A stretch of DNA of 64,000 bases from Escherichia coli (GTDB taxonomy: Bacteria; Pseudomonadota; Gammaproteobacteria; Enterobacterales; Enterobacteriaceae): NCBI RefSeq assembly GCF_045037415.1, contig NZ_CP173438.1, one strand, 5' to 3'. The notes under the pieces were generated by a model. The model was not told the origin of the DNA. It saw only the letters and a list, made by a program, of their open reading frames with translations, and searched no databases. Made by a program: the position numbers and the translations under genes. Of the stretch, positions 3,976 to 64,000 are shown in pieces; position 1 is the first letter of the stretch, and the number at the start of each line of letters is the position of its first letter.

Positions 3976-4062
3976 GCCGAGGTGGTGGAATTGGTAGACA
4001 CGCTACCTTGAGGTGGTAGTGCCCAATAGGGCTTACGGGTTCAAGTCCCGTCCTCGGTACCA
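3976..4062 (+). tRNA. leuU: tRNA-Leu (GAG anticodon), 87 nt with encoded CCA
   Basis: GCCGAGGTGGTGGAATTGGTAGACACGCTACCTTGAGGTGGTAG...GGTTCAAGTCCCGTCCTCGGTACCA; long variable arm typical of class II tRNA-Leu; immediately 3' of secG. Confidence 0.93.
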
Positions 4063-4071
4063 AATTCCAGA

Positions 4072-4100
4072 AAGACGCTGAAAAGCGTCTTTTTTCGTTT
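4072..4100 (+). terminator. Rho-independent terminator after leuU
   Basis: AGACGCTGAAAAGCGTCT hairpin followed by TTTTTTCGTTTT. Confidence 0.7.
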
Positions 4101-4518
4101 TGGTCCTGGTCTGAGGAATGGTTGTCAGGTATCTGTATCTCGTCCAGTTGTTTTACTCGTAGCTGGTACCTTGAAACGATGGTGCCGGTATGCCTTAGTT
4201 ATAAGCTTTTCCCTTCTGCTGACATAATTGGCACTTTATTGTGTCAACTCCATTTCCGGTACGAATACGGATATGTTTACTTCTCGATAAACCATCCTGC
4301 CCCTGTCAGTATAACTACTGATGGCTACGTTCTGCGTAATGTTTAGAGACGCATTGATAATGTTATTTAATTACTGAGAACGCAATGGCCGCATCATTTA
4401 AAAAGAAAAAATCTAGCAGTGTTTCGGTCTGATATGGATTAGAGTTGAAAAACATGTCTGATATAAAATTGAACATTGTTGATAATTGTTTATATTGGTT
4501 GTGAACTTGGATTTCTGG

Positions 4519-6144: not shown

Positions 6145-6151
6145 TGTCGAA

Positions 6152-7510
<1,359 letters not shown>

Positions 7511-7535
7511 TTAATTAACTGATGATGAGCCTGGA

Positions 7536-7578
7536 TTTCTGCTCTCACTGAATTTTTATGCAAAATAAATGAGTTTTC
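7536..7578 (-). promoter_or_regulatory. candidate tandem ARG boxes (ArgR operator) in argG promoter region
   Basis: CTGAATTTTTATGCAAAA and ATAAATGAGTTTTCATTT resemble the ARG box consensus TNTGAATWWWWATTCANW; located just upstream of argG start on minus strand. Confidence 0.45.
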
Positions 7579-7720
7579 ATTTAATCATCTTTTATCGGAG
7601 ACAGGAAGAGTTTAGTGTGTTTTTTGTAAAATAATGCGCTTAAGGGAAAGCAGGAGAAGGTAAAAGTATTCAACAAATGAAAGTGAACTGGATATTCATT
7701 CACGTGATTAGCAATAAACG

Positions 7721-7750
7721 TTGACAAAATGTGGCGTGGATCACTATAAT
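7721..7750 (+). promoter_or_regulatory. candidate sigma70 promoter upstream of metY (TTGACA -35, 18-nt spacer, TATAAT -10)
   Basis: perfect hexamers TTGACA at 7721-7726 and TATAAT at 7745-7750. Confidence 0.5.
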
Positions 7751-7798
7751 GCCCGCAGATTTTACGTCCCGTCTCGGTACACCAAATCCCAGCAGTAT

Positions 7799-7828
7799 TT
7801 GCATTTTTTACCCAAAACGAGTAGAATT
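7799..7828 (+). promoter_or_regulatory. candidate metY-proximal promoter (TTGCAT -35, TAGAAT -10), start site predicted a few nt upstream of the tRNA
   Basis: -10 TAGAAT at 7823-7828 sits about 15 nt upstream of mature tRNA 5' end. Confidence 0.5.
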
Positions 7829-7842
7829 TGCCACGTTTCAGG

Positions 7843-7919
<77 letters not shown>

Positions 7920-8042
7920 CTTTCCCTTAGAGTCCTTTTTCAAATATACTGTGAAGACTTCGGCCTTCGTAGTGGGATTTGAAAAAATCCTTCTGGAAAG
8001 TGCTCCAGACCGCAGTTGCGGTTATAGGGTTCAGTTATATAA

Positions 8043-8066
8043 AGCCCCGATTTATCGGGGTTTTTT
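8043..8066 (+). terminator. Rho-independent terminator/attenuator between metY and rimP
   Basis: AGCCCCGATTTATCGGGGTTTTTT; a second hairpin+T-run (GGGCTTTAGGCCCTTTTTTT) at about 8089-8108. Confidence 0.55.
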
Positions 8067-8125
8067 GTTATCTGACTACAGAATAACTGGGCTTTAGGCC
8101 CTTTTTTTATGTCTTGGGGGTGGGC

Positions 8126-8578
8126 TTGTCCACATTAGAGCAAAAATTAACAGAGATGATTACTGCGCCAGTTGAGGCCCTGGGTTTTGAACTGGTTGGC
8201 ATCGAATTTATTCGCGGTCGCACATCCACACTGCGCATCTATATTGATAGTGAAGATGGCATCAATGTTGATGATTGTGCTGATGTGAGCCACCAGGTAA
8301 GTGCTGTGCTGGATGTTGAAGACCCCATCACCGTTGCTTATAACCTGGAAGTCTCCTCACCGGGTCTCGATCGCCCACTGTTCACGGCTGAACACTACGC
8401 CCGTTTTGTCGGAGAAGAGGTGACTCTGGTTCTCCGTATGGCGGTACAAAACCGTCGTAAATGGCAGGGCGTTATCAAAGCGGTAGACGGTGAAATGATC
8501 ACAGTTACCGTCGAAGGTAAAGATGAAGTGTTCGCGCTGAGTAATATCCAGAAGGCGAACCTGGTTCCCCACTTTTAA
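8126..8578 (+). CDS. rimP: ribosome maturation factor RimP
   Basis: ORF 8114..8578; in-frame TTG at 8126 gives 150 aa (M)[27 protein letters not shown]...; start codon choice follows my recollection of the K-12 protein. Confidence 0.85.
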
Positions 8579-8605
8579 TAGTCTGGATGAGGTGAAAAGC
8601 CCGCG

Positions 8606-10093
<1,488 letters not shown>

Positions 10094-10117
10094 TAAACTG
10101 TAGCAGGAAGGAACAGC

Positions 10118-12790
10118 ATGACAGATGTAACGATTAAAACGCTGGCCGCAGAGCGACAGACCTCCGTGGAACGCCTGGTACAGCAATTTGCTGATGCAGG
10201 TATCCGGAAGTCTGCTGACGACTCTGTGTCTGCACAAGAGAAACAGACTTTGATTGACCACCTGAATCAGAAAAATTCAGGCCCGGACAAATTGACGCTG
10301 CAACGTAAAACACGCAGCACCCTTAACATTCCTGGTACCGGTGGAAAAAGCAAATCGGTACAAATCGAAGTCCGCAAGAAACGCACCTTTGTGAAACGCG
10401 ATCCGCAAGAGGCTGAGCGCCTTGCAGCGGAAGAGCAAGCGCAGCGTGAAGCGGAAGAGCAAGCCCGTCGTGAGGCAGAAGAATCGGCTAAACGCGAGGC
10501 GCAACAAAAAGCTGAACGTGAGGCCGCAGAACAAGCTAAGCGTGAAGCTGCTGAACAAGCGAAACGTGAAGCTGCGGAAAAAGACAAAGTGAGCAATCAA
10601 CAAGACGATATGACTAAAAACGCCCAGGCTGAAAAAGCCCGCCGTGAGCAGGAAGCTGCAGAGCTCAAGCGTAAAGCCGAAGAAGAAGCGCGTCGTAAAC
10701 TCGAAGAAGAAGCACGTCGCGTTGCTGAAGAAGCACGTCGTATGGCGGAAGAAAACAAATGGACTGATAACGCGGAACCGACTGAAGATTCCAGCGATTA
10801 TCACGTCACTACTTCTCAACATGCTCGCCAGGCAGAAGACGAAAGCGATCGTGAAGTCGAAGGCGGCCGTGGCCGTGGTCGTAACGCGAAAGCAGCGCGT
10901 CCGAAGAAAGGCAACAAACACGCTGAATCAAAAGCTGATCGTGAAGAAGCTCGTGCAGCAGTACGTGGCGGTAAGGGCGGAAAACGTAAAGGTTCTTCGC
11001 TGCAGCAAGGCTTCCAGAAGCCAGCTCAGGCCGTTAACCGTGACGTTGTGATCGGCGAAACCATCACCGTTGGCGAACTGGCGAACAAGATGGCGGTTAA
11101 AGGCTCTCAGGTCATCAAAGCGATGATGAAACTGGGCGCAATGGCAACCATCAACCAGGTTATCGATCAGGAAACCGCACAGCTGGTTGCTGAAGAGATG
11201 GGCCACAAAGTTATCCTGCGTCGTGAAAACGAGCTGGAAGAGGCGGTAATGAGCGACCGTGACACGGGTGCTGCGGCTGAACCGCGCGCGCCGGTTGTGA
11301 CCATCATGGGTCACGTTGACCACGGTAAAACCTCTCTGCTGGACTACATTCGTTCAACGAAAGTGGCCTCTGGCGAAGCGGGCGGCATTACCCAGCACAT
11401 TGGTGCATACCACGTTGAAACTGAAAACGGCATGATCACCTTCCTGGACACCCCGGGGCACGCCGCGTTTACTTCAATGCGTGCACGTGGTGCGCAGGCA
11501 ACGGACATCGTAGTCCTGGTTGTTGCTGCAGACGACGGTGTAATGCCGCAGACCATCGAAGCTATCCAGCACGCGAAAGCGGCGGGTGTTCCGGTGGTGG
11601 TTGCTGTGAACAAAATCGATAAACCAGAAGCCGATCCGGATCGCGTTAAGAACGAACTCTCCCAGTACGGCATCCTGCCAGAAGAGTGGGGCGGCGAAAG
11701 CCAGTTCGTACACGTATCTGCAAAAGCGGGTACCGGTATTGATGAACTGCTGGATGCTATCCTGCTGCAGGCGGAAGTTCTGGAGCTGAAAGCGGTACGT
11801 AAAGGTATGGCGAGCGGTGCGGTTATCGAATCCTTCCTCGATAAAGGTCGTGGTCCGGTTGCTACCGTTCTGGTACGTGAAGGTACTCTGCACAAGGGCG
11901 ATATCGTTCTGTGTGGCTTCGAATACGGTCGTGTTCGTGCAATGCGTAACGAACTGGGTCAGGAAGTGCTGGAAGCGGGTCCGTCCATTCCGGTGGAAAT
12001 CCTCGGCCTGTCCGGCGTACCGGCTGCGGGTGATGAAGTTACCGTTGTACGTGACGAGAAGAAAGCGCGTGAAGTTGCACTTTATCGTCAGGGTAAATTC
12101 CGCGAAGTTAAACTGGCGCGTCAGCAGAAATCTAAACTCGAGAACATGTTCGCCAACATGACCGAAGGCGAAGTTCACGAAGTGAATATCGTCCTGAAGG
12201 CAGACGTACAGGGTTCTGTGGAAGCAATTTCTGACTCCTTGCTGAAACTGTCTACTGACGAAGTTAAAGTGAAGATCATCGGTTCTGGCGTAGGTGGTAT
12301 CACCGAAACCGACGCTACCCTGGCTGCGGCGTCCAACGCCATCCTGGTTGGCTTCAACGTACGTGCTGATGCCTCTGCACGTAAAGTGATTGAAGCGGAA
12401 AGCCTGGATCTGCGTTACTACTCCGTCATCTATAACCTGATCGACGAAGTGAAAGCGGCGATGAGCGGTATGCTGTCTCCGGAACTGAAACAGCAGATTA
12501 TCGGTCTGGCGGAAGTTCGTGACGTGTTCAAATCACCGAAATTTGGTGCTATCGCAGGTTGTATGGTTACCGAAGGTGTGGTTAAACGTCACAACCCGAT
12601 CCGCGTTCTGCGCGACAACGTGGTTATCTACGAAGGCGAGCTGGAGTCCCTGCGACGCTTCAAAGATGACGTTAACGAAGTCCGTAACGGTATGGAATGT
12701 GGTATCGGCGTTAAGAACTACAACGATGTCCGCACTGGCGATGTGATCGAAGTATTCGAAATCATCGAGATCCAACGTACCATCGCTTAA
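10118..12790 (+). CDS. infB: translation initiation factor IF-2
   Basis: 890 aa [23 protein letters not shown]...; GTP-binding motifs GHVDHGKT and NKIDK; repetitive charged N-terminal region. Confidence 0.96.
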
Positions 12791-12807
12791 GGTTTTTAGG
12801 GTTCCAT

Positions 12808-12877
12808 GCGGGATAAGGCGTTTATGCCGCATCCTGTATGGATTGCCTGATGCGACGCTGGCGCGTCTTATCAGGCC
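12808..12877. repeat. REP/BIME-type repetitive extragenic palindromes (two REP units) in infB-rbfA spacer
   Basis: GCGGGATAAGGCGTTTATGCCGCATCC and GCCTGATGCGACGCTGGCGCGTCTTATCAGGCC match the E. coli REP family. Confidence 0.75.
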
Positions 12878-12911
12878 AACGTGAACAGCCCTTCCACCTG
12901 AAATTAATTTT

Positions 12912-12937
12912 AAAAAGGGGCTAACAGCCCCTTTTTT
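12912..12937 (+). terminator. hairpin plus T-run upstream of rbfA (internal partial terminator)
   Basis: AAAAAGGGGCTAACAGCCCCTTTTTTG. Confidence 0.5.
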
Positions 12938-12953
12938 GTCAGGAGAATTTATT

Positions 12954-13355
12954 ATGGCGAAAGAATTTGGTCGCCCGCAGCGCGTAGCGCAGGAAATGCA
13001 AAAAGAGATCGCTCTCATCCTGCAGCGTGAAATTAAAGATCCTCGTCTGGGCATGATGACCACCGTTTCCGGTGTCGAAATGTCTCGCGACCTGGCGTAT
13101 GCCAAAGTATATGTGACGTTCCTCAACGACAAAGATGAAGACGCGGTTAAAGCGGGCATCAAAGCGTTGCAGGAAGCTTCTGGTTTCATCCGCAGCCTGC
13201 TGGGGAAAGCGATGCGCCTGCGTATCGTGCCGGAACTGACCTTCTTCTACGACAACTCTCTGGTTGAAGGGATGCGCATGTCAAACCTGGTGACCAGCGT
13301 GGTCAAACATGACGAAGAACGTCGTGTTAACCCGGACGACAGCAAGGAGGACTAA
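12954..13355 (+). CDS. rbfA: 30S ribosome-binding factor A
   Basis: ORF 12936..13355; ATG at 12954 with AGGAG SD gives 133 aa [24 protein letters not shown]... Confidence 0.93.
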
Positions 13356-32795: not shown

Positions 32796-33659
32796 ATGAA
32801 ACAACACCAATCGGCGGATAATTCTCAGGGGCAGCTTTACATTGTACCGACGCCAATCGGCAATCTGGCGGATATCACCCAGCGTGCATTAGAGGTATTA
32901 CAGGCCGTTGATCTGATTGCCGCCGAGGATACGCGTCACACCGGTTTATTGCTGCAACATTTTGGGATTAATGCCCGGTTGTTTGCGCTGCACGATCATA
33001 ACGAACAACAAAAAGCCGAAACGCTGCTGGCGAAGCTGCAAGAGGGGCAAAACATTGCGCTGGTTTCCGATGCCGGAACGCCGCTAATTAACGATCCTGG
33101 CTACCATCTGGTGCGTACCTGTCGTGAAGCGGGGATTCGCGTGGTGCCGCTACCAGGGCCGTGTGCTGCTATCACTGCGTTAAGCGCCGCGGGTTTACCA
33201 TCCGATCGTTTTTGTTATGAAGGCTTTTTACCTGCCAAATCAAAAGGCCGCCGTGATGCGCTAAAAGCTATTGAAGCGGAGCCGCGCACGCTGATTTTTT
33301 ATGAATCTACCCACCGTCTGTTAGATAGCCTGGAAGATATTGTTGCGGTATTAGGCGAATCCCGTTACGTGGTTCTGGCGCGTGAGCTAACCAAAACCTG
33401 GGAAACCATTCACGGCGCGCCCGTTGGCGAGCTGCTGGCGTGGGTAAAAGAAGATGAAAACCGTCGCAAAGGCGAAATGGTGCTGATTGTCGAAGGCCAT
33501 AAAGCGCAGGAAGATGACCTGCCTGCTGATGCCCTGCGCACGCTGGCGCTGTTACAGGCAGAACTGCCGCTGAAAAAAGCGGCGGCGCTGGCCGCAGAAA
33601 TTCACGGCGTGAAGAAAAATGCGCTGTATAAGTATGCGCTGGAGCAGCAGGGAGAGTGA
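32796..33659 (+). CDS. rsmI: 16S rRNA (cytidine1402-2'-O)-methyltransferase RsmI
   Basis: 287 aa [52 protein letters not shown]... Confidence 0.93.
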
Positions 33660-33662
33660 TTA

Positions 33663-33698
33663 CAGGCGTCGCAGCAGGAATAGCGCTGCAACGCCTGT
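33663..33698. terminator. near-perfect 13-bp inverted repeat hairpin between convergent rsmI and agaI (putative bidirectional terminator)
   Basis: CAGGCGTCGCAGC-aggaatagc-GCTGCAACGCCTG, 12 of 13 pairs; no strong T-run. Confidence 0.4.
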
Positions 33699-33708
33699 AC
33701 CAGGCGAG

Positions 33709-34476
33709 TTAACGACGACACATTTCATCAATCACGCATGTGAAATGGTTATGCAGCCATAAAAATGAAGCCGGGATAGCGGTGGAGACTTTAGCCGTGA
33801 GAAAACGTTCTGTCGCATCCTGTTTTCCTTCGCCAGTTATCAGTAACAAAACTTCGCGGGCATTGAGAATATCCTTCAGGCCTAAGGTGATCCCACGAGT
33901 CACGGGACGGTCAGCGGTTTTTAACATCTCATGTTGCTGTGTTCTGGCATCAAGTTGACTGATATGGCAGGCCGGTTGCAGGCTTTCTCCCGGTTCGTTC
34001 AGCCCAAGATGACCGTTTTTCCCCAATCCGAGAACGCATAAGTCCAGACCGCCTTTGCGCGCAATCAGGTTCGTTACCCGTTCGCACTCTGTCTCATTTA
34101 TCTCTTCGGAGTGAAAGCTGATGAGCTGGTCTTCACGTAGCCCCAGCGGCTGCACGATATGCTGTTGAAGGAAAGTTTCGCAGGTACCAGGCATCGTTAA
34201 TGGCAGATCCACCCATTCGTCGAGCTTCACGAAGGTGAGCTGGCTGACATCAACCTGCTGCTGGTGGATTTTTTCTACCAAATAATGATACGTCAGTAAT
34301 GGCGTGGCTCCGGTCGCCAGGCAAATCACGGCATCCGGTTTGCTACGGATCACGGCCAATAAATATTCGCTGGCACGTTCACTTAACGCCGTATAGTTTT
34401 CAACTTGTTGAAGGGTTTGCACAGGATGAAATTCCTTAAGTAAAGAGGCACCGCCAGACGCGGTGCCTCGTTCCAT
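33709..34476 (-). CDS. agaI: putative galactosamine-6-phosphate deaminase/isomerase AgaI (NagB family)
   Basis: 255 aa ORF MERGTASGGASLLKEFHPVQTLQQVENYTALSERASEYLLAVIRSKPDAVICLATGATPL... Confidence 0.88.
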   Translation of the reverse strand: MERGTASGGASLLKEFHPVQTLQQVENYTALSERASEYLLAVIRSKPDAVICLATGATPLLTYHYLVEKIHQQQVDVSQLTFVKLDEWVDLPLTMPGTCETFLQQHIVQPLGLREDQLISFHSEEINETECERVTNLIARKGGLDLCVLGLGKNGHLGLNEPGESLQPACHISQLDARTQQHEMLKTADRPVTRGITLGLKDILNAREVLLLITGEGKQDATERFLTAKVSTAIPASFLWLHNHFTCVIDEMCRR

Positions 34477-35268
34477 TTACAAAATGCCGAATGCAGAACA
34501 AACAATAGAAAGAACAAACGTCACGCCGATTAACAGCACCGGATGCGCTTTTTTCACCCGCAGGAAGTAATACATCAGCAGGGTGTAGGCCATCGGTAAA
34601 ATATTCGGGAAGACTTTATCGAAGAAATCCTGCTGCAGCGCGACGCTGTGGGTACTGTCGATGGCAAACGATGTCACCACGTTAATATGCACATACGAAG
34701 CGATCAGCCCGCCGATTACTGTGATCCCGAGGATGGTTGCCGAACGGGCAATCATCTGCGAGTTCTCTCGCACTTTATCAATAGCCTTCACGCCGACTGA
34801 ATAACCGACGTGGGTCCAGCCGACGCGCAGGAAAAAGATAAGCAGGTAAACGGCGAAAAACAAAATCGGTCCCAACAGGTTCCCCTGACTGGCAAACGAT
34901 GAGCAAATCCCCGCCATAATCGGCAACAAAGTAAACCAGAAAATCGCATCGCCAATCCCGGCGATTGGGCCAAACAGTGCCACTTTGAGGCCTTTAATGG
35001 TGTCGCGGTTTTCTCCTTTTTCTTCCATCGAAATTAATAACCCCATCAGAAATCCGACCAGATTAGGGTGGGTATTAATAAATTCGAGGTTATCTTTCAT
35101 CGCCGCGCTTAGGCCCGGTTTGTCGTTCTTATAAATCTTTTTCAGGATCGGCAACATCGCCCAGGTAAAACCGCCCGCCTGCATCCTTTCGTAGTTAAAG
35201 CTTGCTTGTAGCAGTGACGAACGAAAGCCCAGACGGGTGATATCTTTTTTACTGATTTCAGATCCCAT
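34477..35268 (-). CDS. agaD: PTS mannose-family IID component (galactosamine-specific)
   Basis: ORF 34477..35415; ATG at 35268 gives 263 aa MGSEISKKDITRLGFRSSLLQASFNYERMQAGGF... Confidence 0.9.
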   Translation of the reverse strand: MGSEISKKDITRLGFRSSLLQASFNYERMQAGGFTWAMLPILKKIYKNDKPGLSAAMKDNLEFINTHPNLVGFLMGLLISMEEKGENRDTIKGLKVALFGPIAGIGDAIFWFTLLPIMAGICSSFASQGNLLGPILFFAVYLLIFFLRVGWTHVGYSVGVKAIDKVRENSQMIARSATILGITVIGGLIASYVHINVVTSFAIDSTHSVALQQDFFDKVFPNILPMAYTLLMYYFLRVKKAHPVLLIGVTFVLSIVCSAFGIL

Positions 35269-36061
35269 TGCTGTAGTCCTCTTCTTCATTTTTACTGGCA
35301 ACGGGCTGCGGTTGCGCTTGCTGCCGGGATTTCGCATTGAAAAACTCATACACCGCAAAGCCTGCGCCCAGCACGGCAACCGGCAACAGGTTGCTGACCT
35401 GGATGTAGCAAACAAACAGGAAACCGGCGATCAGGTAAGGGATATATTGCGCTTTGAACATCACGCGCAGCAGCAAGCCAAAACCAACGGCAGGCAGAAT
35501 ACCGCCAGCCACTTCAAAGCCGTGGGTCAGCCAGGCGGGCATCGCTTTCACCAGCGCCTGCATCGCCCCTTGTGCCAGGTAAGTACAGAGGAAAGCAATC
35601 ACCGCATACGCTGAAGCGACGATGAGCATCGTTGTCCAGTTAAGTCGGGAAAACGCTGCCGTATCCGCCTCTTTCGCGCATTTATCGGCTTTGGTCATAA
35701 ATAATGAGAAAGCGGAATAGAAGAACAGAATGACGTACTGCATTAACAAACTAAACGGCAGGCCAAGACCAATTGCCGTTTTGGCATCAACGCCCGTAGA
35801 CCATGCAATGACGGTGGTCATCAGACCCGCCATAATAGGGTTGGGCGGCTGAACACCACCTGCAGGGGTTAATCCGGCGAAAGCCAACTCTGTCAGGCCT
35901 CCGGTAATTAAGCCAGTCTGAATATCACCGAGAATAGCACCTGTAAGGGTACAAACGATTATCGGGCGGAATAAAAATAAGGCTTCCAGCCAAAAATCAA
36001 TCCCCAGAACGAAAACTAACGCCGCCAGGGATAATCCCTGGAGTAGGGTTATTTCATGCAT
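35258..36061 (-). CDS. agaC: PTS mannose-family IIC component (galactosamine-specific)
   Basis: 267 aa hydrophobic ORF MHEITLLQGLSLAALVFVLGIDFWLEALF...; overlaps agaD start by 11 nt. Confidence 0.9.
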   Translation of the reverse strand: MHEITLLQGLSLAALVFVLGIDFWLEALFLFRPIIVCTLTGAILGDIQTGLITGGLTELAFAGLTPAGGVQPPNPIMAGLMTTVIAWSTGVDAKTAIGLGLPFSLLMQYVILFFYSAFSLFMTKADKCAKEADTAAFSRLNWTTMLIVASAYAVIAFLCTYLAQGAMQALVKAMPAWLTHGFEVAGGILPAVGFGLLLRVMFKAQYIPYLIAGFLFVCYIQVSNLLPVAVLGAGFAVYEFFNAKSRQQAQPQPVASKNEEEDYSNGI

Positions 36062-36099
36062 TTTTATTACCTCAAACCAATATTAAGGCGATTTCAGAT

Positions 36100-36576
36100 T
36101 TAGTCAGGGATTTGTTCTTTTTGATCGCCAGGAACGTCCTGAATGAAAACATTCACGCCACGTTGTTTAATATAACGTAAGTCCGTGAGATCCTGGTCAT
36201 CGACATAAACTTTACTGCTGATTTGCTTTTTCCCTTCCGAGAAATGCATATTGCCGACGTTGACATCTTTCAGGTCAATACCACCTTCTACCAATTTACG
36301 TACCGTTTGTGGCGTACGGCAAATCAGGAAGATCTTCTGATGTGGTGCAGCTTTGCCGATGACGTTAATGGTTTTTTCGATAGTAAAGAAACGAATGCCA
36401 AAGCCGTAGGTTTCTGCGGTAATACCCATTAATTTCTGTTGAATATCATCGTTAGCGACAACATCATCCACGACTACCAACAGATTCGCACCGATGGTGG
36501 ATGTCCAGGTCACGCCAACCTGACCGTGAACCAGACGGTTATCAATACGGGTTAAGAGAATATTTGGACTGCTCAT
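36100..36576 (-). CDS. agaB: PTS mannose-family IIB component (galactosamine-specific)
   Basis: 158 aa ORF MSSPNILLTRIDNRLVHGQVGVTWTSTIGANLLVVVDD... Confidence 0.9.
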   Translation of the reverse strand: MSSPNILLTRIDNRLVHGQVGVTWTSTIGANLLVVVDDVVANDDIQQKLMGITAETYGFGIRFFTIEKTINVIGKAAPHQKIFLICRTPQTVRKLVEGGIDLKDVNVGNMHFSEGKKQISSKVYVDDQDLTDLRYIKQRGVNVFIQDVPGDQKEQIPD

Positions 36577-36742
36577 TGTGTAATCCTCACCATAAAGTTG
36601 AATAATATAATATTTTTAAATATATTATTGTTGCGATATTGTACTGATGTATTTATTAATGTTTGGTTATCTCCTTTGCCATTAAGGTACTACCCGATAT
36701 TAATCGGGCAGTGCATTCTGAAAAAACGTATAAAATTAATGA

Positions 36743-37615
<873 letters not shown>

Positions 37616-38770
37616 TTATGCCTGCCACGGATGAATAGTTACGCCTTGCACCACGCGGTTTACGGTGCCACTGGCTGATGGGGTATCCGGCGTATTGCCC
37701 ATGTGCAGCGACTGCATCAGTGCAAACGTCTGGGCGTACATCAGGAAGCAAAATGCTTGTTCAACGTCGATAAAGTGACGGGACGGCGGCAGGATGATAT
37801 GCGGGCCAGCGGCGATAACGTCGTTGCTTTCAGCGGTGATGGCGATCACGCGCATTGCCTGGTTGTCACGGCGGAGTTCTGCCAGCAGGTCAAGATCGTA
37901 CTGACGGGTGTAAGGGTGACTGGAGACAAACACCACTACCAGCGTTTCGTCATCGACCAGCGATTTCGGGCCATGACGGAATCCGGTCGGGGAATCATAG
38001 AAGGCCGCCAGTTTACCCGCTGTCAGTTCCAGCACTTTCAGCGCCGACTCGCGTGCTGCGCCCTGTAAGCCACCGCTGCCGAGATAAACGATCCGTTTCC
38101 ACGGTGCGTAACCAAACACACCTTCGCTGAAATCGCCCAGTGAGGTCAGGATCGCCTGGCAACGATCCGCCACGTCGCGGAAGGTTTGGCTGTTGATCGT
38201 CTCAGGTGCGAAAACCGCGAGGCAGCTGGCCATCATGGTGGTAATGCTGCTGGTCATCGCAAAGCCGCGATCGTGCGTTTCTGCGGGCATCAGCAGGGCA
38301 AACGCGTTGTCGCTGTTGATCGCGTTTTGGTAAAGAGCGCCCGCTTCGTTGCAGGTGATCGGCAGGTGATAGCATTCTGGTACAAATTGATTTGCCAGTT
38401 CCACGGCGGCGACGCTTTCCGGGCTGTTGCCGGAGCGACCGAAGGAGATCAACAGTAGCGGATGAGCTGGGTTCAGGTAGTCCATTGGATTGGTGACCAG
38501 ATCGGTGGTTGGTACGGCGCTGAAGTTTTTACCGGTATGGCTGGCGAGCCACGGCGCGATGATGTCACCGATAAATGCCGATGTTCCGGCTCCGGTCAGG
38601 ATGATTTGCAGATTCTCTTTGCGCAGTAACGGTTCAAGGAAGTTATTGAGCGCGGAACGTAGCGCGTCAATGTTGGTGAGTGAACGGATCCATGCGCGAG
38701 GCTGATGGCGGATCTCTTCTTCAGTCCATGTACCGGTTGCGGCAGCAGCAGGGGTGTAATTTTCTGGCAT
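37616..38770 (-). CDS. agaS: SIS-domain sugar-phosphate isomerase/deaminase AgaS
   Basis: 384 aa ORF MPENYTPAAAATGTWTEEEIRHQPRAWIRSLTNIDALRSALNNFLEPLL... Confidence 0.92.
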   Translation of the reverse strand: MPENYTPAAAATGTWTEEEIRHQPRAWIRSLTNIDALRSALNNFLEPLLRKENLQIILTGAGTSAFIGDIIAPWLASHTGKNFSAVPTTDLVTNPMDYLNPAHPLLLISFGRSGNSPESVAAVELANQFVPECYHLPITCNEAGALYQNAINSDNAFALLMPAETHDRGFAMTSSITTMMASCLAVFAPETINSQTFRDVADRCQAILTSLGDFSEGVFGYAPWKRIVYLGSGGLQGAARESALKVLELTAGKLAAFYDSPTGFRHGPKSLVDDETLVVVFVSSHPYTRQYDLDLLAELRRDNQAMRVIAITAESNDVIAAGPHIILPPSRHFIDVEQAFCFLMYAQTFALMQSLHMGNTPDTPSASGTVNRVVQGVTIHPWQA

Positions 38771-38774
38771 AACT

Positions 38775-38945
38775 CAATCCTTAGTCTGATGAACTTGACG
38801 TCGGCGTTGTCGCTTTCGCTTGCCTTTCGTTTCATTTCACTTGGTGATTTCTTTCGTTGGTTAAAATCTATAGAAAAGAAACTGAAAGTTCAATGGAGAA
38901 AAAGGAAATAAAACGAAATCTGTGATCGTTGAAAGAAAAGACAAG
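38775..38945 (-). promoter_or_regulatory. agaS promoter region with CTTTC/GAAAG-rich direct repeats (candidate AgaR operators)
   Basis: GCCTTTCGTTTCATTTCACTT... and repeated GAAA(G) units seen in sequence; AgaR operators are known to be built on such repeats. Confidence 0.45.
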
Positions 38946-38962
38946 GGAAGTAAAAGGGATTG

Positions 38963-39043
38963 CTGGATGCGGCGTAAATACTTTATCCGGCCTTACGGTC
39001 ACCAACCGTAGGTCGGATAAGGCGCATTAGCGTCGCATCCGAC
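38963..39043. repeat. REP/BIME pair between agaA and agaS
   Basis: CTGGATGCGGCGTAAATACTTTATCCGGCC and GTAGGTCGGATAAGGCGCATTAGCGTCGCATCCGAC. Confidence 0.7.
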
Positions 39044-39060
39044 ACCGCTGCACAGATCAA

Positions 39061-39106
39061 AAAGAAAGAAAAAGAAAGGCCTTACGGGGGAAGTGAAGGC
39101 CTAATA
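39061..39106 (-). terminator. Rho-independent terminator after agaA (end of agaZVWEFA transcription unit)
   Basis: minus-strand reading AGGCCTTCACTTCCCCCGTAAGGCCT followed by TTTCTTTTTCTTTC. Confidence 0.55.
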
Positions 39107-39119
39107 AAGGAGCAAACCA

Positions 39120-40253
39120 TCAAAACGAAGCTAATTGACCCTGAATCCAGATTTGTTGCACATGCAGCCCGCTATCCAGCGCAACGACGCTGGCGCGTTT
39201 GCCCGGTTTAAGCGATCCCAGAACACCATCAACACCCAGCATTCGCGCCGGATGCAGCGACGCCATATGGATGGCTTCCGCAGGCGTTACGCCCGTCAAC
39301 TCGACCATGTTGCGCACTGCCGCATCGACAGACAGCGTACTGCCCGCCAGCCCACCGAACGCGGTACGGACAATGCCACCGTGCATCTGCACTTCTTCAC
39401 CACATAACGTATAGTGACCATCCGGCATCCCGGCTGCCTGCATCGCGTCGGTGATCAGTACGATCCTCTCTTTCGCACAGCAACAACAGAGCGACATTGC
39501 CGCCGGATGTACATGATGACCATCGGCTATCAGTTCCAGCCAGGCGCGCTTGTCCGTTAATCCCGCGCCAACCATTCCCGGTTCGCGGTGATGTAAACCT
39601 GTCATCCCGTTATAGCAATGCACCAGGCCGTCGGCACCAGCATCAAACGCGGCACGGGTTTGTTGCCAGGTCGCCGCGCTATGCCCCAGCATCACCCGTA
39701 CGTTTTGCTGTTTAAGATGGCGGATGGCCTGCAATGCCCCTTCTTTTTCTGGTGCCAGCGCTACCACGCGTAAGGTCTGCTGAGAAACGGCAATCAATTG
39801 ATCCAGCTCGGCAATTTCCAGCTCGCGAAACAGCTCCGGCGGATGTGCGCCTTTATTCTGCGGCGTGAAGTACGGTCCTTCGAGATAACTCCCCAGCACT
39901 TGCGCACCAGGCCCACCGCGCTGGCAGCGTAGAGCAATACGTTTCAGCGCCGCATGAATGGTATTAAGCGGCGCGGTTACGGTGGTCGGTAACCAACTGC
40001 CGACACCTTCGCGTGCCTTGTGCATTGCCAGCTTGTCGAGCGCATCCGGCGCGTCATCCATTACATCAACGCCCGCACCACCGTGTACATGGGTGTCGAT
40101 GTAAGCGGGGCAGAGCAGTTCCGCATCGCGTTCAGTCACGCCCACTGGAATCGGTTCGATTGCTGCGATTACACCGTCAGCAATACGCAACTGATGGTCA
40201 TCGAGCCATCCCTCTTCAGTCAGCAGCCTTCTGGCGCGCAGAACGTGTGTCAT
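39120..40253 (-). CDS. agaA: N-acetylgalactosamine-6-phosphate deacetylase AgaA, full length
   Basis: ORF 39120..40274; ATG at 40253 (ATGA overlap with agaF stop) gives 377 aa MTHVLRARRLLTEEGWLDDHQLRIADGVIAAIEPI...; amidohydrolase HxH motif; alternative start at 40274. Confidence 0.88.
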   Translation of the reverse strand: MTHVLRARRLLTEEGWLDDHQLRIADGVIAAIEPIPVGVTERDAELLCPAYIDTHVHGGAGVDVMDDAPDALDKLAMHKAREGVGSWLPTTVTAPLNTIHAALKRIALRCQRGGPGAQVLGSYLEGPYFTPQNKGAHPPELFRELEIAELDQLIAVSQQTLRVVALAPEKEGALQAIRHLKQQNVRVMLGHSAATWQQTRAAFDAGADGLVHCYNGMTGLHHREPGMVGAGLTDKRAWLELIADGHHVHPAAMSLCCCCAKERIVLITDAMQAAGMPDGHYTLCGEEVQMHGGIVRTAFGGLAGSTLSVDAAVRNMVELTGVTPAEAIHMASLHPARMLGVDGVLGSLKPGKRASVVALDSGLHVQQIWIQGQLASF

Positions 40254-40684
40254 ATTCCTTCCTCGACCGGACATTCCTCATGGCAGCGACCAAGTTCGTC
40301 CACCAGACTGGTTAGCCCACGGTGTCCACACTCCAGCGCCTGCACACGGAACTCTTCACCGCTTAACCCTTCGCGTTCCAGCACCATTTCCAGTAATAGT
40401 TGCAAATTTGTGCCGGTGATCACTTCACAGCCCGGTTTTTGCATCGCCAGCGTTGAAGCTACGCGAAACGGCGTGCCGCCCAGCAAATCCGTCAGAAAAA
40501 CAATGCCGTCTTCACAATCCAGTTGGGCGATGGCCTCTTCAAGCTGCGATGTAAGCAGCGCGGTGCTTGAGGTTTCTGGAAAATCGATGGCGATAAACTG
40601 CGATTGCTCGCCGAGGATTTGCTTCATTGCTTTTTCCATGCCGCTGGCAAATCCGCCATGCCCTGTCAAAATAATACTTAACAT
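40250..40684 (-). CDS. agaF: PTS mannose-family IIA component (N-acetylgalactosamine/galactosamine)
   Basis: 144 aa ORF MLSIILTGHGGFASGMEKAMKQILGEQSQFIAIDFPE... Confidence 0.88.
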   Translation of the reverse strand: MLSIILTGHGGFASGMEKAMKQILGEQSQFIAIDFPETSSTALLTSQLEEAIAQLDCEDGIVFLTDLLGGTPFRVASTLAMQKPGCEVITGTNLQLLLEMVLEREGLSGEEFRVQALECGHRGLTSLVDELGRCHEECPVEEGI

Positions 40685-40701
40685 CTAATACCTCATTGTA
40701 T

Positions 40702-41586
40702 TTAAAGGAAATGGCAGAATTTACCGACGATGCCGAGAACCACTGTCACTGCAATCAGGCGCAGCGGACTCCAGCCGCGGCGTACCAGCCAGAACATGGT
40801 CAGGGTGTAGACCAGCGGTAAGAAGGCAGGCATCAGTTTGTCGATAACATCAGCCTGTAACTTAACCACTGCGTCGCCCGCCGTGATTTCCAGCGTGGTG
40901 CTTAAACGAACATAGGTTGCCACCAGCGCGCCGATCACCGTCATCCCAACGATAGACGCCGCATGGCCGACTTTTTTGGTATTTGCTTTAATGAGTGGAA
41001 TAGCCGCCACGCCCATGCGGTAAGCATAATGCGCCAGACCAAAACGCAGCCCCAGGTGCACCACGTTGAACAGCACAATAAAGACGACAGCGCCAAGAAT
41101 AGAGCCTTGTAGCGCGAGGCTTGCGCCTATCCCGCCACAAATCGGCAGTAGCGTTAGCCAGAACATCGCATCGCCAATCCCGCCGAGCGGCGCACCGACG
41201 GCAATTTTGGTGCTCTGAATACTGTTAACGTCCTGCTTAGAACGCTCCATCGCAAGGATAATGCCGATAACAAACGTCACCAGAAACGGATGGGTATTGA
41301 AGAAACCCATATGCCCCTTCATGGCGCGCGCCAGGTCCCGTTTATTAGTGTGGATCTTTTTCAGAGCAGGCAGCAGACCGTACAACCAGCCGGAAGCCTG
41401 CATACGTTCGTAGTTGAAAGACGCTTGTAACAGCATGGAGCGCCAGGCGACGCGGTTGATATCTTTTTTCGTCAGCTCTGCGCCAATGCTCTGATCTTCA
41501 TACACGTTTTCATTGACGCCAGTCAGCAGTGTTTCTTCATTTTCGCTGACGTTCGGCAGGGTGGTTTGATTAGATGCCATCTTCAA
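40702..41586 (-). CDS. agaE: PTS mannose-family IID component (N-acetylgalactosamine-specific)
   Basis: 294 aa ORF MKMASNQTTLPNVSENEETLLTGVNENVYEDQSIGAELTKKDINRVAWRSMLLQASFNYERMQ... Confidence 0.88.
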   Translation of the reverse strand: MKMASNQTTLPNVSENEETLLTGVNENVYEDQSIGAELTKKDINRVAWRSMLLQASFNYERMQASGWLYGLLPALKKIHTNKRDLARAMKGHMGFFNTHPFLVTFVIGIILAMERSKQDVNSIQSTKIAVGAPLGGIGDAMFWLTLLPICGGIGASLALQGSILGAVVFIVLFNVVHLGLRFGLAHYAYRMGVAAIPLIKANTKKVGHAASIVGMTVIGALVATYVRLSTTLEITAGDAVVKLQADVIDKLMPAFLPLVYTLTMFWLVRRGWSPLRLIAVTVVLGIVGKFCHFL

Positions 41587-42349
41587 ATTCCTCTTTCTGT
41601 GCCGCAGGTTGAGTCGGTTCAGGAGATTTACGCAGCAGGTCGATCAGCGCCATCGCCAGCGCAGCGGCAGCAATAGCCAGCACCGGTAACTTGAGCCAGG
41701 CTGCGGCAACAAAGCCCAGGATGAAGTAGGGGATGTAGACGTTTTTCATCATGATTTTCAGCAGCACGGCAAAACCGATTGCTGGCATGATGCCGCCCGC
41801 GACGCCGAGGCCATCAATTAATCGTTGCGGCAGGACATCAATGATGGTTTTTGCATGTTCCGCGCCGAAGTAGATAGGCAGGAAAGCGCAGAGAAAATAG
41901 AAAGTGCCGAGTGCCAGCAGTGCCAGATAGTTCACGCGTTCAATGCCGCGAGTATCGGCGTTCTCCGCCATCCGGTCGCAGCGGGACATCACGCCGGACA
42001 TCACCGAGAACAGGAAGGTAATCCCCATCTGTACTGCAACAGCGAAAGGTACGGCGACACCGACCGCGACATCGGGTTTCACGCCAGTAGTAATGGCAAA
42101 CGCCGTGCCGACGATAGTACCGATAATCACGTTAGGCGGCTGTGCGCCCGCCAGCGGGGCCAGCCCCATCCACACCAGTTCCAGCGTACCGCCGGTTAAA
42201 ATACCGGTATGCAGATCGCCAAGTACCAGCCCGACCAACGGGCCGAGAACCACCGGGCGGTGCATATGGGTTAAGCCGTTAAACATATCCAGGCCAGCGA
42301 TAAAGGCGATAATGCCCAACGCAAATGCCTGCAACAGACTGATTTCCAT
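41570..42349 (-). CDS. agaW: PTS mannose-family IIC component (N-acetylgalactosamine-specific), full length
   Basis: 259 aa hydrophobic ORF MEISLLQAFALGIIAFIAGLDMFNGLTHMHRPVVLGPL...; overlaps agaE start by 17 nt. Confidence 0.88.
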   Translation of the reverse strand: MEISLLQAFALGIIAFIAGLDMFNGLTHMHRPVVLGPLVGLVLGDLHTGILTGGTLELVWMGLAPLAGAQPPNVIIGTIVGTAFAITTGVKPDVAVGVAVPFAVAVQMGITFLFSVMSGVMSRCDRMAENADTRGIERVNYLALLALGTFYFLCAFLPIYFGAEHAKTIIDVLPQRLIDGLGVAGGIMPAIGFAVLLKIMMKNVYIPYFILGFVAAAWLKLPVLAIAAAALAMALIDLLRKSPEPTQPAAQKEEFEDGI

Positions 42350-42359
42350 GATGAATCCC

Positions 42360-42833
42360 TCAAAGTAATTTAAAGAGGTCCACAGCAGGCTCTGTCGGGA
42401 CGCCCTGAACGAAGCATTCCACCCCAGCGGCTTTCAGGTCGTTAAATGCTGCGATATCACCCGCATCCACAGAAACCGTTTTGGCGATTTGTTGCTTGCC
42501 ATTGGCGTAGTGCATATTGCCAACGTTAATGCGATTCACCGGAACGCCACCTTTCACCAGCGTCAGGAAATCGGCCGGTGTTTTACAAACCAGCAGGATT
42601 TTCTGTCGATCGGCGGCGCGATGGATGTTGTCGATGACTTTTTGCAGCGTCCAGAAACGTACGGCGATCCCTTCTGCCAGTACCATTTCCATCAGGTTTT
42701 GTTGTACCGGATCTTCGGCAACCTCATCGTTGGCTACCAGCACCAGATTTGCCCCCGCAAATCCTACCCACTGAACGCCGACCTGACCGTGAATCAAGCG
42801 TTCATCAATCCGACTTAAAACAATATTTGGCAT
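42360..42833 (-). CDS. agaV: PTS mannose-family IIB component (N-acetylgalactosamine-specific)
   Basis: ORF 42360..42869; ATG at 42833 gives 157 aa MPNIVLSRIDERLIHGQVGVQWVGFAGANLVLVANDE... Confidence 0.9.
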   Translation of the reverse strand: MPNIVLSRIDERLIHGQVGVQWVGFAGANLVLVANDEVAEDPVQQNLMEMVLAEGIAVRFWTLQKVIDNIHRAADRQKILLVCKTPADFLTLVKGGVPVNRINVGNMHYANGKQQIAKTVSVDAGDIAAFNDLKAAGVECFVQGVPTEPAVDLFKLL

Positions 42834-42855
42834 AGCGTGTTCCTCTTTGTTTTGC

Positions 42856-44136
42856 TTATTGGCCTTCACAGGCTGTGTGGTACTGCGCCAGGATGTCCTG
42901 AATATGGTTGATAATGAGTTCCCGTGGCGTTGGCTGCAGCTCGCCGGAGCGAACTTTCACGTACTGCAGCGGCAGATACTGACTGATCAGCGGCAGCGGA
43001 ATTGGTGAATCCGCCAGATTACGAACCAGATGAGCGAAAGCGTCATCAATCTGGCTGTCCGGCCAGTAATAGCGCACGCGATCCGAGTAGCTATAACCAC
43101 GCGCCAGACGACGCGCGTTGCCGTCACCGTGGTAGTGGCTTTGCCAGTATTCCGGGCGGTCGAGCATCACGTTTTCCAGCACCTGACGCAGACCAGAACA
43201 GGCTTTTGCTGGCACTAGTTCTTCTTCAATCGCTGCCAGAGAGAACAGAGCTTCACGCAGAGCAAAGGTCAGCGCCGGGCCAACTTTCAGAATGGCAAAG
43301 TGGTCAATCACCAGCTGGCGCAGCGATTGCGGCGTTTGATAATCGGTAGAGTGCGCTTCGAAAATCAGCGTTTCGTAGTTTTCGACCATCTGGCTTAAGG
43401 CGGTCGCTTTGGCGGGCTGATAATCAATAACGTTGGTGTGATCGAATTCGACGCCGGGTTGAACCACCAGGGCAATGATGCGTGGCCAGATGGCATTCAG
43501 ACCCTGCTTTTCAAAAGCGTGACGATGGGCTTCCAGCGTGGCGCGGGCGGCATCCGGCGTGGTGACCGCCAGCTCGCTTAAGGTTTCATGCGCGCCGCCA
43601 GGCACCGGCACTTCGGTACCAATGACATACTCCAGATCGGCTTCGCCAAAATGTTCACGGCAGGTTTCTTCCGCCACTTTCGCCAAACGAGCGGCGCGTT
43701 CGGCCACGATGCCATCGGTTAAGGGAATCGGATCGTCCTGACAGGACATGCTGCAATCAAGGTGAATTTTTTTGAATCCTGCCGCCACGTAGCTTTTAAT
43801 CAAATCATCGGCATTGGCCATTGCCTGAGCGGCAGGCAGATTTTGCCAGCGGTTTGGCCCCAGATGGTCGCCACCCAGAATCAGCGCATCCTGCGGGAAA
43901 TTCAACGAGTCGGCGAGCTGACAAACAAAGCCGCGAAAACCGGCGGGCGTCATTCCGGTATAACCGCCAAACTGGTCCACCTGATTGGAGGTAGCTTCAA
44001 TCAGTAACGGCGTTTGGTTTGCACTGGCGTAGCGGATTGCAGCTTCCAGCACCAGCGGATGTGCGGAACAAACGGCATAAATCCCATTTGTTTTGCCCGC
44101 TTTGTGCTGTCTCACCATTTCTGTCAGATGTTTCAC
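42856..44136 (-). CDS. kbaZ: tagatose-bisphosphate aldolase non-catalytic subunit KbaZ (AgaZ)
   Basis: 426 aa [64 protein letters not shown]... Confidence 0.92.
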
Positions 44137-44384
44137 TTTCCTCTCCAGTTCAGATTACTGCGACATTAATCTTTCGTTTTGTTTCAGTTGATACTGCGTC
44201 ATGGTGAGATAAAAATAAAACGAAAGATAATAGTTTTCTGATCTGATTCACAAAAGAAACATAATGAAAGCCACTGAAACGAGAGTAGCTTGCGCCAATG
44301 GGTAAGGTGGGCTTGCATTTGCTTAATAGAAAGGCGTTAATAGGCAAAACGAAATGAAACGAAAGTTTTACGAAAGGACTTACT
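44137..44384. promoter_or_regulatory. divergent kbaZ / agaR control region with repeated (A)AACGAAA(G/T) units (candidate AgaR operators)
   Basis: AAACGAAAGATAATAG..., AACGAAATGAAACGAAAGTTTTACGAAAGG seen between divergent start codons. Confidence 0.45.
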
Positions 44385-45194
44385 ATGAGTAATACCGACG
44401 CTTCAGGTGAGAAGCGAGTGACAGGCACCAGCGAGCGACGAGAACAGATCATTCAGCGTCTGCGACAGCAAGGGAGTGTGCAGGTTAACGATCTGTCGGC
44501 ATTGTATGGCGTATCTACTGTGACGATCCGCAACGATCTGGCGTTTCTGGAAAAGCAGGGGATCGCCGTGCGTGCCTATGGTGGCGCGTTGATCTGCGAT
44601 AGCACAACGCCGTCAGTCGAGCCATCAGTGGAAGATAAAAGCGCACTGAACACCGCGATGAAACGCAGCGTTGCGAAAGCTGCCGTTGAGTTGATTCAGC
44701 CTGGTCATCGGGTGATCCTCGACTCCGGGACCACCACTTTTGAGATTGCTCGTCTGATGCGCAAGCACACCGACGTAATTGCGATGACCAACGGTATGAA
44801 CGTGGCTAATGCGTTGCTGGAAGCGGAAGGCGTTGAGCTGCTGATGACCGGGGGGCATTTGCGCCGTCAGTCGCAATCTTTTTACGGTGATCAGGCTGAG
44901 CAATCGCTGCAAAATTACCACTTCGATATGCTGTTTCTTGGTGTAGATGCGATCGATCTGGAGCGTGGCGTCAGCACGCATAATGAAGATGAAGCCCGTT
45001 TAAACCGTCGGATGTGCGAAGTTGCGGAACGGATCATCGTGGTCACCGATTCCAGTAAGTTCAACCGTTCCAGTTTACATAAGATCATTGATACTCAACG
45101 TATCGACATGATCATTGTTGATGAAGGCATTCCTGCGGATAGTCTGGAAGGACTGCGAAAGGCTGGGGTTGAAGTGATTCTGGTCGGGGAATGA
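44385..45194 (+). CDS. agaR: DeoR-family transcriptional repressor of the aga regulon
   Basis: 269 aa [62 protein letters not shown]...; N-terminal HTH. Confidence 0.93.
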
Positions 45195-45199
45195 GAAAG

Positions 45200-45238
45200 G
45201 ATGCCCGCTGGTCAACACCAATGCGTTCGGCGGGCATT
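45200..45238. terminator. inverted repeat ATGCCCGC...GCGGGCAT between convergent agaR and yhaV (putative bidirectional terminator)
   Basis: 8-bp perfect arms with about 21-nt loop. Confidence 0.35.
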
Positions 45239-45248
45239 GTGAACACCA

Positions 45249-45713
45249 TCAATGGTTTTCTTCTGTCTCTTGGGTGAGGCTTTCCCAGTCGGCAGGAGGA
45301 TGTCCTCTTTTTAACATTTTACTGAATACGGTATAGGCATCTGTTTTTTTACCGTAGGTGCGCAGCGTGTTTTCATCGTTCATCCATCCCAGAATGATGA
45401 CTTTCTCTTTTTCACTGTAACGAAAGAAGAGACGATAGCGACCAGCACCAAATTTTACCCGTGACCAGTCTTTATTTTTCCCAGAGCCTAACGACTTGCC
45501 ATGACGGAATGCCGGTGATGATGGATTGACCGTGATATGCTCCTCAATCACTTTATGGACCACCGCCAATAACTTTGTGGCAGCTTTTCTCTGATAATTT
45601 TCAGGATCTTTTCCCTTTAATGCCTCGACTTCGGCAACTAAAGCATCGTAGGTTTCCTGAAAACAGGGATGAGCATATAGCGCCCAACCATTAACCCTTT
45701 GTGGAAAATCCAT
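45249..45713 (-). CDS. yhaV: type II toxin YhaV (ribosome-dependent mRNA endoribonuclease)
   Basis: 154 aa ORF MDFPQRVNGWALYAHPCFQETYDALVAEVEALKGKDPENYQRKAATKLLAVVHKVIEEH... Confidence 0.9.
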   Translation of the reverse strand: MDFPQRVNGWALYAHPCFQETYDALVAEVEALKGKDPENYQRKAATKLLAVVHKVIEEHITVNPSSPAFRHGKSLGSGKNKDWSRVKFGAGRYRLFFRYSEKEKVIILGWMNDENTLRTYGKKTDAYTVFSKMLKRGHPPADWESLTQETEENH

Positions 45714-46048
45714 TATTCGTCGTCGCCAATCTCATCGTCAATGTTGACGTCCATGCCAGCGACAAGTTTCTTTCCTTGTTGAATGTCGAATGGACGAGTT
45801 TTTTGCGGATTGTTCTGGATATCTGCATCCAGAAAACGCAAAAATGCATTCATAGTATGATCCTCCTGTTCATCTCCCAGTCGGCACATAAATACTTGCC
45901 CACCAGGCAGAATTTCGTAATGAATGCTGTCCAGGCCTGGCTTCAGTTTTAAGGCCTCACGCACTGGCGCGGGGATAGTTGTTTGTCCGCGTATAGTGAC
46001 CTTTGATTCAGTGGTCAGTACAGCGTTAGAGCGAGCATTAGCGGGCAT
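45713..46048 (-). CDS. prlF: type II antitoxin PrlF (SohA), AbrB/SpoVT-type DNA-binding domain
   Basis: 111 aa ORF MPANARSNAVLTTESKVTIRGQTTIPAPVREALKLKPGLDSIHYEILPGGQVFMC... with acidic C-terminus; 1-nt overlap with yhaV start. Confidence 0.9.
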   Translation of the reverse strand: MPANARSNAVLTTESKVTIRGQTTIPAPVREALKLKPGLDSIHYEILPGGQVFMCRLGDEQEDHTMNAFLRFLDADIQNNPQKTRPFDIQQGKKLVAGMDVNIDDEIGDDE

Positions 46049-62991: not shown

Positions 62992-63447
62992 ATGGAAATT
63001 GCATCGAATAAAGGCGTCATTGCAGACGCTTCGACCCCGGCGGGTCGTGCTGGAATGAGTGAGAGCGAGTGGCGAGAAGCGATCAAATTCGACAGTACTG
63101 ACACTGGCTGGGTGATTATGAGTATCGGGATGGCGATTGGCGCGGGGATTGTTTTTCTCCCGGTGCAGGTCGGTTTGATGGGATTGTGGGTATTTTTGCT
63201 CTCATCGGTGATTGGTTACCCGGCAATGTATCTGTTTCAGCGGTTGTTTATTAATACGCTGGCAGAATCACCAGAATGTAAAGATTACCCGAGCGTCATC
63301 AGCGGTTATTTAGGTAAAAACTGGGGCATCCTGTTAGGTGCACTCTATTTCGTAATGCTGGTGATTTGGATGTTCGTCTATTCCACCGCCATCACCAACG
63401 ATAGTGCTTCCTACCTGCATACCTTCGGCGTGACGGAAGGGTTGCTG

Positions 63448-63450: not shown

Positions 63451-64000
<550 letters not shown>

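Follow-up and report, generated by a model that had tools for sequence, protein, structure and literature searches.

The closest described counterparts of the locus studied here are the aga/gam regulons of Escherichia coli strains C, O157:H7 and K-12, which concern the use of N-acetylgalactosamine (GalNAc; Aga phenotype) and galactosamine (GalN; Gam phenotype). AgaV, AgaW and AgaE together with AgaF constitute the GalNAc phosphotransferase system (PTS), and AgaBCD with the same AgaF constitute the GalN PTS (PMC3668189). The same study reported that agaA is dispensable, with nagA substituting for it, that the GalN-6-phosphate (GalN-6-P) deaminase/isomerase is AgaS, which is essential, and not AgaI, which is dispensable, and that KbaY/KbaZ cleave tagatose-1,6-bisphosphate (PMC3668189). 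E. coli C is experimentally Aga+ Gam+ (PMC3668189), and K-12 is Aga- Gam- through a 2.3-kb deletion (PMC3668189; PMC2808357). P1 transfer of the K-12 delta-agaWEFA region into strain C led to loss of growth on GalNAc, and a clean agaR deletion in strain C left growth on GalNAc unaffected (PMC9628945). We analyzed the aga/gam locus within a stretch of 64,000 nucleotides from an E. coli genome (assembly GCF_045037415.1, contig NZ_CP173438.1), hereafter the window, and conclude with high confidence that the aga/gam regulon it carries is complete and represents the ancestral E. coli state.

The regulon consists of thirteen genes, agaR / kbaZ-agaV-agaW-agaE-agaF-agaA / agaS-kbaY-agaB-agaC-agaD-agaI, as established from direct translation, which revealed no internal stop in any of the thirteen, and from RefSeq annotation of strain EC15, whose aga genes match the window without a difference. 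Because this is annotated gene content rather than a statistical pattern, chance is not an issue. Ten of the encoded proteins were scanned against NCBIfam models and all scored above the curated cut-offs (model, score and cut-off in bits are given in brackets). The DeoR-family repressor of the regulon is encoded on the plus strand by agaR (44385-45194; 269 residues; NF040755, 465 vs 260), and the other twelve genes are on the minus strand. The first of these is kbaZ (agaZ), which has a GTG start and encodes the non-catalytic subunit of tagatose-bisphosphate aldolase (42856-44136; 426 residues; NF012002, 893 vs 707). It is followed by the genes for the GalNAc PTS enzyme II components, agaV for EIIB (42360-42833; 157 residues; NF008508, 320 vs 180, aligned over 1-157 of 157), agaW for EIIC (41570-42349; 259 residues; NF040757, 411 vs 300) and agaE for EIID (40702-41580; 292 residues; NF040760, 618 vs 500, aligned over 1-292 of 292), by agaF for the EIIA common to both uptake systems (40250-40684; 144 residues; NF040761, 219 vs 130) and by agaA for GalNAc-6-phosphate (GalNAc-6-P) deacetylase (39120-40253; 377 residues; TIGR00221, 286 vs 226). 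The remaining genes are agaS, encoding the GalN-6-P deaminase/isomerase (37616-38770; 384 residues; TIGR02815, 634 vs 529), kbaY (agaY), encoding tagatose-1,6-bisphosphate aldolase (36743-37603; 286 residues; NF009375, 666 vs 542), the open frames for the galactosamine PTS components EIIB, EIIC and EIID, namely agaB (36100-36576), agaC (35258-36061) and agaD (34477-35268), and agaI, whose NagB-like product is of uncertain role (33709-34476; 255 residues; NF007291, 472 vs 271). AgaB, AgaC and AgaD lay outside the NCBIfam scan and are 98.7-100% identical to the corresponding strain C proteins, with 0-2 amino-acid differences each.

A first-pass annotation of this region, made from the sequence alone, had described agaV, agaW, agaE, agaF and agaA as five full-length open reading frames with tight or overlapping junctions, and had claimed that the whole 13-gene regulon is present. 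Both statements hold: the five frames are full-length, tightly packed on the minus strand and free of internal stops, in agreement with the EC15 annotation, the proposed span of 39120-42833 is bounded exactly by the agaA stop and the agaV start, and all thirteen genes are present and open. The junctions from kbaZ through agaA measure, in order, 22, 10, -11, 17 and -4 nucleotides. At the last of these, the proposed ATGA overlap is indeed found, with the agaA ATG at 40253 and the agaF stop at 40250-40252. The 17-nucleotide overlap proposed for agaW and agaE does not stand, as it corresponds to a TTG at 41586 that opens the longest reading frame; from the ATG at 41580 the overlap is 11 nucleotides. 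This ATG is the better-supported start because it lies 7 nucleotides past a GAGGAA motif, is the RefSeq choice, gives a full-length match to the AgaE model and mirrors the 11-nucleotide agaC/agaD overlap.

The PTS proteins belong to the same family as ManXYZ of E. coli, with which they share the IIA/IIB/IIC/IID architecture and conserved phospho-histidines; they differ in that IIA and IIB are separate polypeptides and in substrate specificity. The mannose-family models TIGR00824, TIGR00854, TIGR00822 and TIGR00828 were all matched, but the curated cut-off was passed only for TIGR00854 (IIB); apart from this, the aga proteins score under the mannose-model cut-offs. In alignments with solved structures, His9 of AgaF falls in the phospho-histidine region of the mannose IIA domain (ManX), and His15 of AgaV, within an RLIHGQV motif, corresponds to the IIB histidine of AgaB and mannose IIB; the reference histidines of IIA and IIB carry their established numbering. 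In AgaA, the HxH, LEGP, GHS, H..YN and TDA motifs align with the solved NagA structures 2vhl and 7nut, the HxH motif at residues 55-57 aligning with Bacillus subtilis NagA. RefSeq annotation by its prokaryotic genome annotation pipeline (PGAP) names agaA “nagA: N-acetylglucosamine-6-phosphate deacetylase” in every genome among the matches listed. AgaA passes the broad TIGR00221 model and fails PRK11170, the model of the housekeeping E. coli NagA (222 bits vs a cut-off of 483), and the “nagA” label is therefore a naming artefact for the AgaA paralogue. Being systematic, it could mislead automated pathway calls.

The comparison with K-12, for which we used a Keio-collection derivative, locates precisely what that strain lacks. 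Its flanking genes and eight of its thirteen aga genes are orthologous to those of the window at approximately 97-98% nucleotide identity, AgaR and AgaC being identical as proteins. The two sequences align by blastn as two colinear blocks with offsets 2,305 bp apart, that is, with a single 2,305-bp gap corresponding to window positions 39675-41979, whose placement is ambiguous within a 6-bp GGTCGC; K-12, with this segment missing, is Aga- Gam- (PMC3668189). The gap takes in all of agaE and agaF, the 3' 410 nucleotides of agaW and the 5' 579 nucleotides of agaA, and leaves the 5' 370 nucleotides of agaW and the 3' 555 nucleotides of agaA joined out of frame. Correspondingly, annotation of the K-12 interval shows two pseudogenes, one for a PTS IIC component without its C-terminus and one for a deacetylase without its N-terminus, with no agaE or agaF. 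The first-pass annotation had stated that K-12 has lost agaE and agaF through a deletion that also cuts into agaW and agaA, and had named alignment to K-12 in advance as the check for a gap of roughly 2 kb; both the pseudogene annotation and the gap found bear this out.

The missing segment ends in an imperfect 10-bp direct repeat, GGTCGC[C/A]GCG, of which 6 bp are exact. The left copy, GGTCGCCGCG, is at 39669-39678 within agaA and the right copy, GGTCGCAGCG, is at 41974-41983 within agaW. The same one-mismatch repeat is present in an intact close relative of K-12, a phylogroup-A pig isolate that we also aligned to K-12 by blastn and that is 99.9% identical to it on either side of the gap, and the crossover is therefore placed within the exact 6-bp GGTCGC. 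To judge from these ends, the deletion looks like a microhomology-mediated event (illegitimate recombination or replication slippage). The wording used for the K-12 event in the secondary literature is “site-specific recombination”.

We then considered how the two arrangements are distributed among complete E. coli genomes. The 14-kb stretch around the agaVWEFA block has matches in 5,425 of 5,426 genomes, and several isolates from humans and wastewater carry it at 100% identity. The segment missing from K-12 is present, at a coverage of at least 80%, in 4,930 of the 5,426, and a 300-bp junction-spanning probe showed the K-12 junction to be contiguous in only 371; in non-carriers the probe aligns as two separate halves, both of which include the 10-bp repeat. 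Together these two groups make up 5,301 genomes, which is the number covering at least 80% of the 14-kb query, and about 125 genomes have some other arrangement. Once genomes with the K-12 junction are set aside, the segment is found in 97.5%. The junction is 100% identical in the best 60 of the 371 carriers and in each of the 65 rows that two overlapping listings of genomes contain. Most of these are named K-12 derivatives, and wherever a listed carrier has a recognisable name it is a laboratory strain derived from K-12 (MG1655, C600, J53, DH5alpha, DH1, NCM3722, RR1 and others). This distribution supports the intact arrangement as the probable ancestral and common one and K-12 as the exception, in line with the ancestral state originally claimed for the window, given that the segment occurs across lineages and the K-12 junction is limited to 371 genomes.

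The opposite polarity, with K-12 retaining the original state and the agaW(3')-agaE-agaF-agaA(5') segment being an insertion gained by most E. coli, would also yield a presence/absence polymorphism, and the segment is slightly richer in GC (54.4%) than the sequence on either side (50.8% and 52.7%). Neither its GC content nor its GC content at third codon positions, however, departs from the range spanned by the other aga genes. What K-12 keeps of agaW and agaA are two out-of-frame halves, annotated as pseudogenes and colinear with the full-length genes, the length of 2,305 bp is not divisible by three, and the segment ends in a short direct repeat of the kind typical of deletions. Moreover, the closest intact relatives of K-12 are 99.9% identical to it on both sides of the gap, and among listed carriers the junction occurs only in K-12-type genomes. 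We consider a gain of the segment to be extremely improbable; the colinear pseudogene halves, the repeat ends and the junction distribution effectively refute it in favor of a deletion in K-12.

The intact arrangement is best compared with that of E. coli C, which has the same thirteen genes in the same order and orientation and with the same overlaps. Twelve window proteins equal their strain C counterparts in length and share 97.9-100% identity with them; AgaR, AgaE, AgaF and AgaC are identical. Between the genes, identity is 98.4% in the kbaZ-agaR region, approximately 95% in the agaA-agaS spacer and 90% in the kbaY-agaB spacer. O157:H7 strains EDL933 and Sakai carry intact agaVWEFA as in the window, and O157:H7 and the source strain are both expected to be Aga+. 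O157:H7 is Gam-, with amber codons at agaC codon 8 and agaI codon 72 (PMC3668189), whereas the window has CAG in agaC and no stop in agaI, from which a Gam+ phenotype is predicted in addition. The null alleles known from this work are AgaF Gly91Ser, agaC Gln8 amber and agaI Gln72 amber (PMC3668189), and none of these published alleles is present in the window sequence: AgaF has Gly91, agaC codon 8 is CAG and agaI codon 72 is not amber. The source strain is thus predicted from its sequence to be Aga+ and, unlike O157:H7, Gam+.

The functional model that we adopt derives from work on E. coli C and O157:H7. AgaR would repress three promoters, its own and those of kbaZ-agaVWEFA and agaS-kbaY-agaBCDI. 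With inducer present, AgaV (IIB), AgaW (IIC) and AgaE (IID) together with AgaF (IIA) would import and phosphorylate GalNAc, and AgaBCD with the same AgaF would do so for GalN. GalNAc-6-P would be deacetylated by AgaA (or NagA), and AgaS would deaminate and isomerise GalN-6-P to tagatose-6-phosphate, which would then be phosphorylated, the resulting tagatose-1,6-bisphosphate being cleaved by KbaY/KbaZ. The K-12 deletion, in removing the shared EIIA (AgaF), would cost that strain both uptake systems.

Potential control elements were found where this model would place them. Tandem AgaR sites have been described at agaZ, agaR and agaS (PMC5018945). In the window, the AgaR-operator consensus reportedly given by Ray and Larson 2004 has six matches, against 0.17 expected in 64 kb, and all six are confined to two spacers, three in each, in agreement with the described tandem sites. 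Those in the kbaZ-agaR divergent control region (44168-44368) are at 44168-44191, 44250-44273 and 44345-44368, and those in the agaA-agaS intergenic control region (38821-39081, within a 349-nucleotide spacer) are at 38821-38844, 38899-38922 and 39058-39081. A consensus scan of 33400-45400 returned 7 promoter-like sites (10.3 expected) and 22 terminator-like sites (15.1 expected), and an Rfam scan of the whole window at gathering thresholds gave no match inside the aga region.

From the gene content and these elements we infer that the locus is probably expressed and would confer growth on GalNAc and GalN in the source strain. Three observations weigh against this. In the scan of 33400-45400 for sigma-70 promoters, no convincing minus-strand promoter was found upstream of kbaZ or agaS, although a simple consensus scan of this kind has little power to detect promoters that depend on an activator. 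The operator matches depend on the form of the consensus that Ray and Larson 2004 reportedly gave. Finally, AgaA and AgaS differ from their strain C counterparts by 8 and 6 substitutions, respectively; none of those in AgaA falls within the conserved metal-binding motifs.

A locus intact in sequence could also be phenotypically silent, with a missense or regulatory change blocking the use of GalNAc, GalN or both. There is precedent, since the single missense change AgaF Gly91Ser abolishes Aga use in the otherwise intact locus of the spinach-outbreak O157:H7 (PMC3668189). In the window, AgaA, AgaS, KbaZ and AgaI each have 5-11 residues that differ from strain C, with which the agaA-agaS spacer shares no more than 94.8% identity. 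On the other hand, AgaE, AgaF, AgaC and AgaR do not differ at all between the window and strain C, AgaW, AgaV, AgaB and AgaD have 1-2 differences, and the operator matches (to the reported consensus) are retained. Strong purifying selection on agaVWEFA also speaks against silencing: relative to a phylogroup-A isolate, we counted 96 synonymous and 11 non-synonymous differences (ratio of non-synonymous to synonymous rates, pN/pS, 0.038), and AgaE and AgaF are identical as proteins despite 34 and 18 nucleotide differences, respectively. Furthermore, alleles at least 99% identical to those of the window occur in about 550 genomes, which argues against a recent lesion. We therefore regard a silent locus as unlikely and a functional one, as predicted above, as the better reading.

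The 3' end of the regulon differs from that of both reference strains. In K-12 and E. coli C, agaI is followed by a chaperone-usher fimbrial operon, yraHIJK; this operon is missing in the window, and the rsmI-agaI interval consists of an unrelated 99 bp (33653-33751) instead of the 5,484 bp of K-12 and strain C. Homology breaks off at 33752, in the last codons of agaI, so that the 3' end of the gene (33709-33751) differs. Consequently, AgaI of the window has 255 residues and ends in HNHFTCVIDEMCRR, whereas AgaI of K-12 and strain C has 251 residues and ends in HSNFICLINT; the C-terminus differs from that of strain C because the yraHIJK operon is absent 3' of agaI. Of the 5,426 complete genomes, 1,821 (about a third) have this yra-less junction. 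The 99-bp spacer, between convergent rsmI and agaI, contains at approximately 33661-33698 an inverted repeat, detected by eye, with the arms ACAGGCGT and ACGCCTGT, which might be a bidirectional terminator or an element resembling a repetitive extragenic palindrome (REP). This agaI breakpoint variant and the repeat anatomy of the K-12 deletion are the sole details that are not obviously in the literature. It is a doubtful proposition that the repeat ends point to microhomology instead of site-specific recombination and that the alternative C-terminus at the agaI breakpoint could matter if AgaI is functional.

At the other end of the regulon, the prlF-yhaV type II toxin-antitoxin pair (45249-46048) adjoins agaR and separates the aga locus from the gar (galactarate) locus, as in K-12. 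Beyond it, a 1-bp indel at approximately 47945, in the garD-garP intergenic region, separates the window from EC15; its position was derived from a change in alignment offset, and the aga genes are unaffected. EC15 is otherwise identical to the window apart from one mismatch in 1-35799. Homology to K-12 ends at 52873, just past rnpB (52459-52835). From approximately 52874 to tdcR, an identical strain has only two short fragments annotated as “hypothetical protein”, and tdcR itself (approximately 53401-53619) is annotated there as a pseudogene with an internal stop; K-12 presumably carries yhaB/yhaC between rnpB and tdcR. Downstream of tdcG, a truncated hypothetical gene (approximately 62992-63447) adjoins a frameshifted transposase pseudogene of the IS3-like insertion sequence ISEc52, which occupies the window end (approximately 63456-64000). 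Rfam matches elsewhere in the window (listed under 3976-14905) are two tRNAs (Leu and Met), the rimP leader, naRNA4, the S15 leader, SraG and RNase P RNA, all of which are expected for a conserved region.

The strain difference described here is already known: it was published in 2000, numerous genome papers have since restated it, and for the species as a whole an intact locus is the norm. Brinkkotter 2000 is said to contain both the K-12 deletion and its phenotype, which are also given by Hu 2013 (PMC3668189). The value of the present comparison is practical rather than conceptual, and it opens no new question. It bears on the use of K-12 as a reference, which is atypical with respect to amino-sugar and mucin-sugar metabolism: annotation or metabolic models based on K-12 would wrongly predict no use of GalNAc or GalN in most E. 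coli. The predicted Aga+ Gam+ phenotype of the source strain would be relevant to growth on intestinal mucin sugars.

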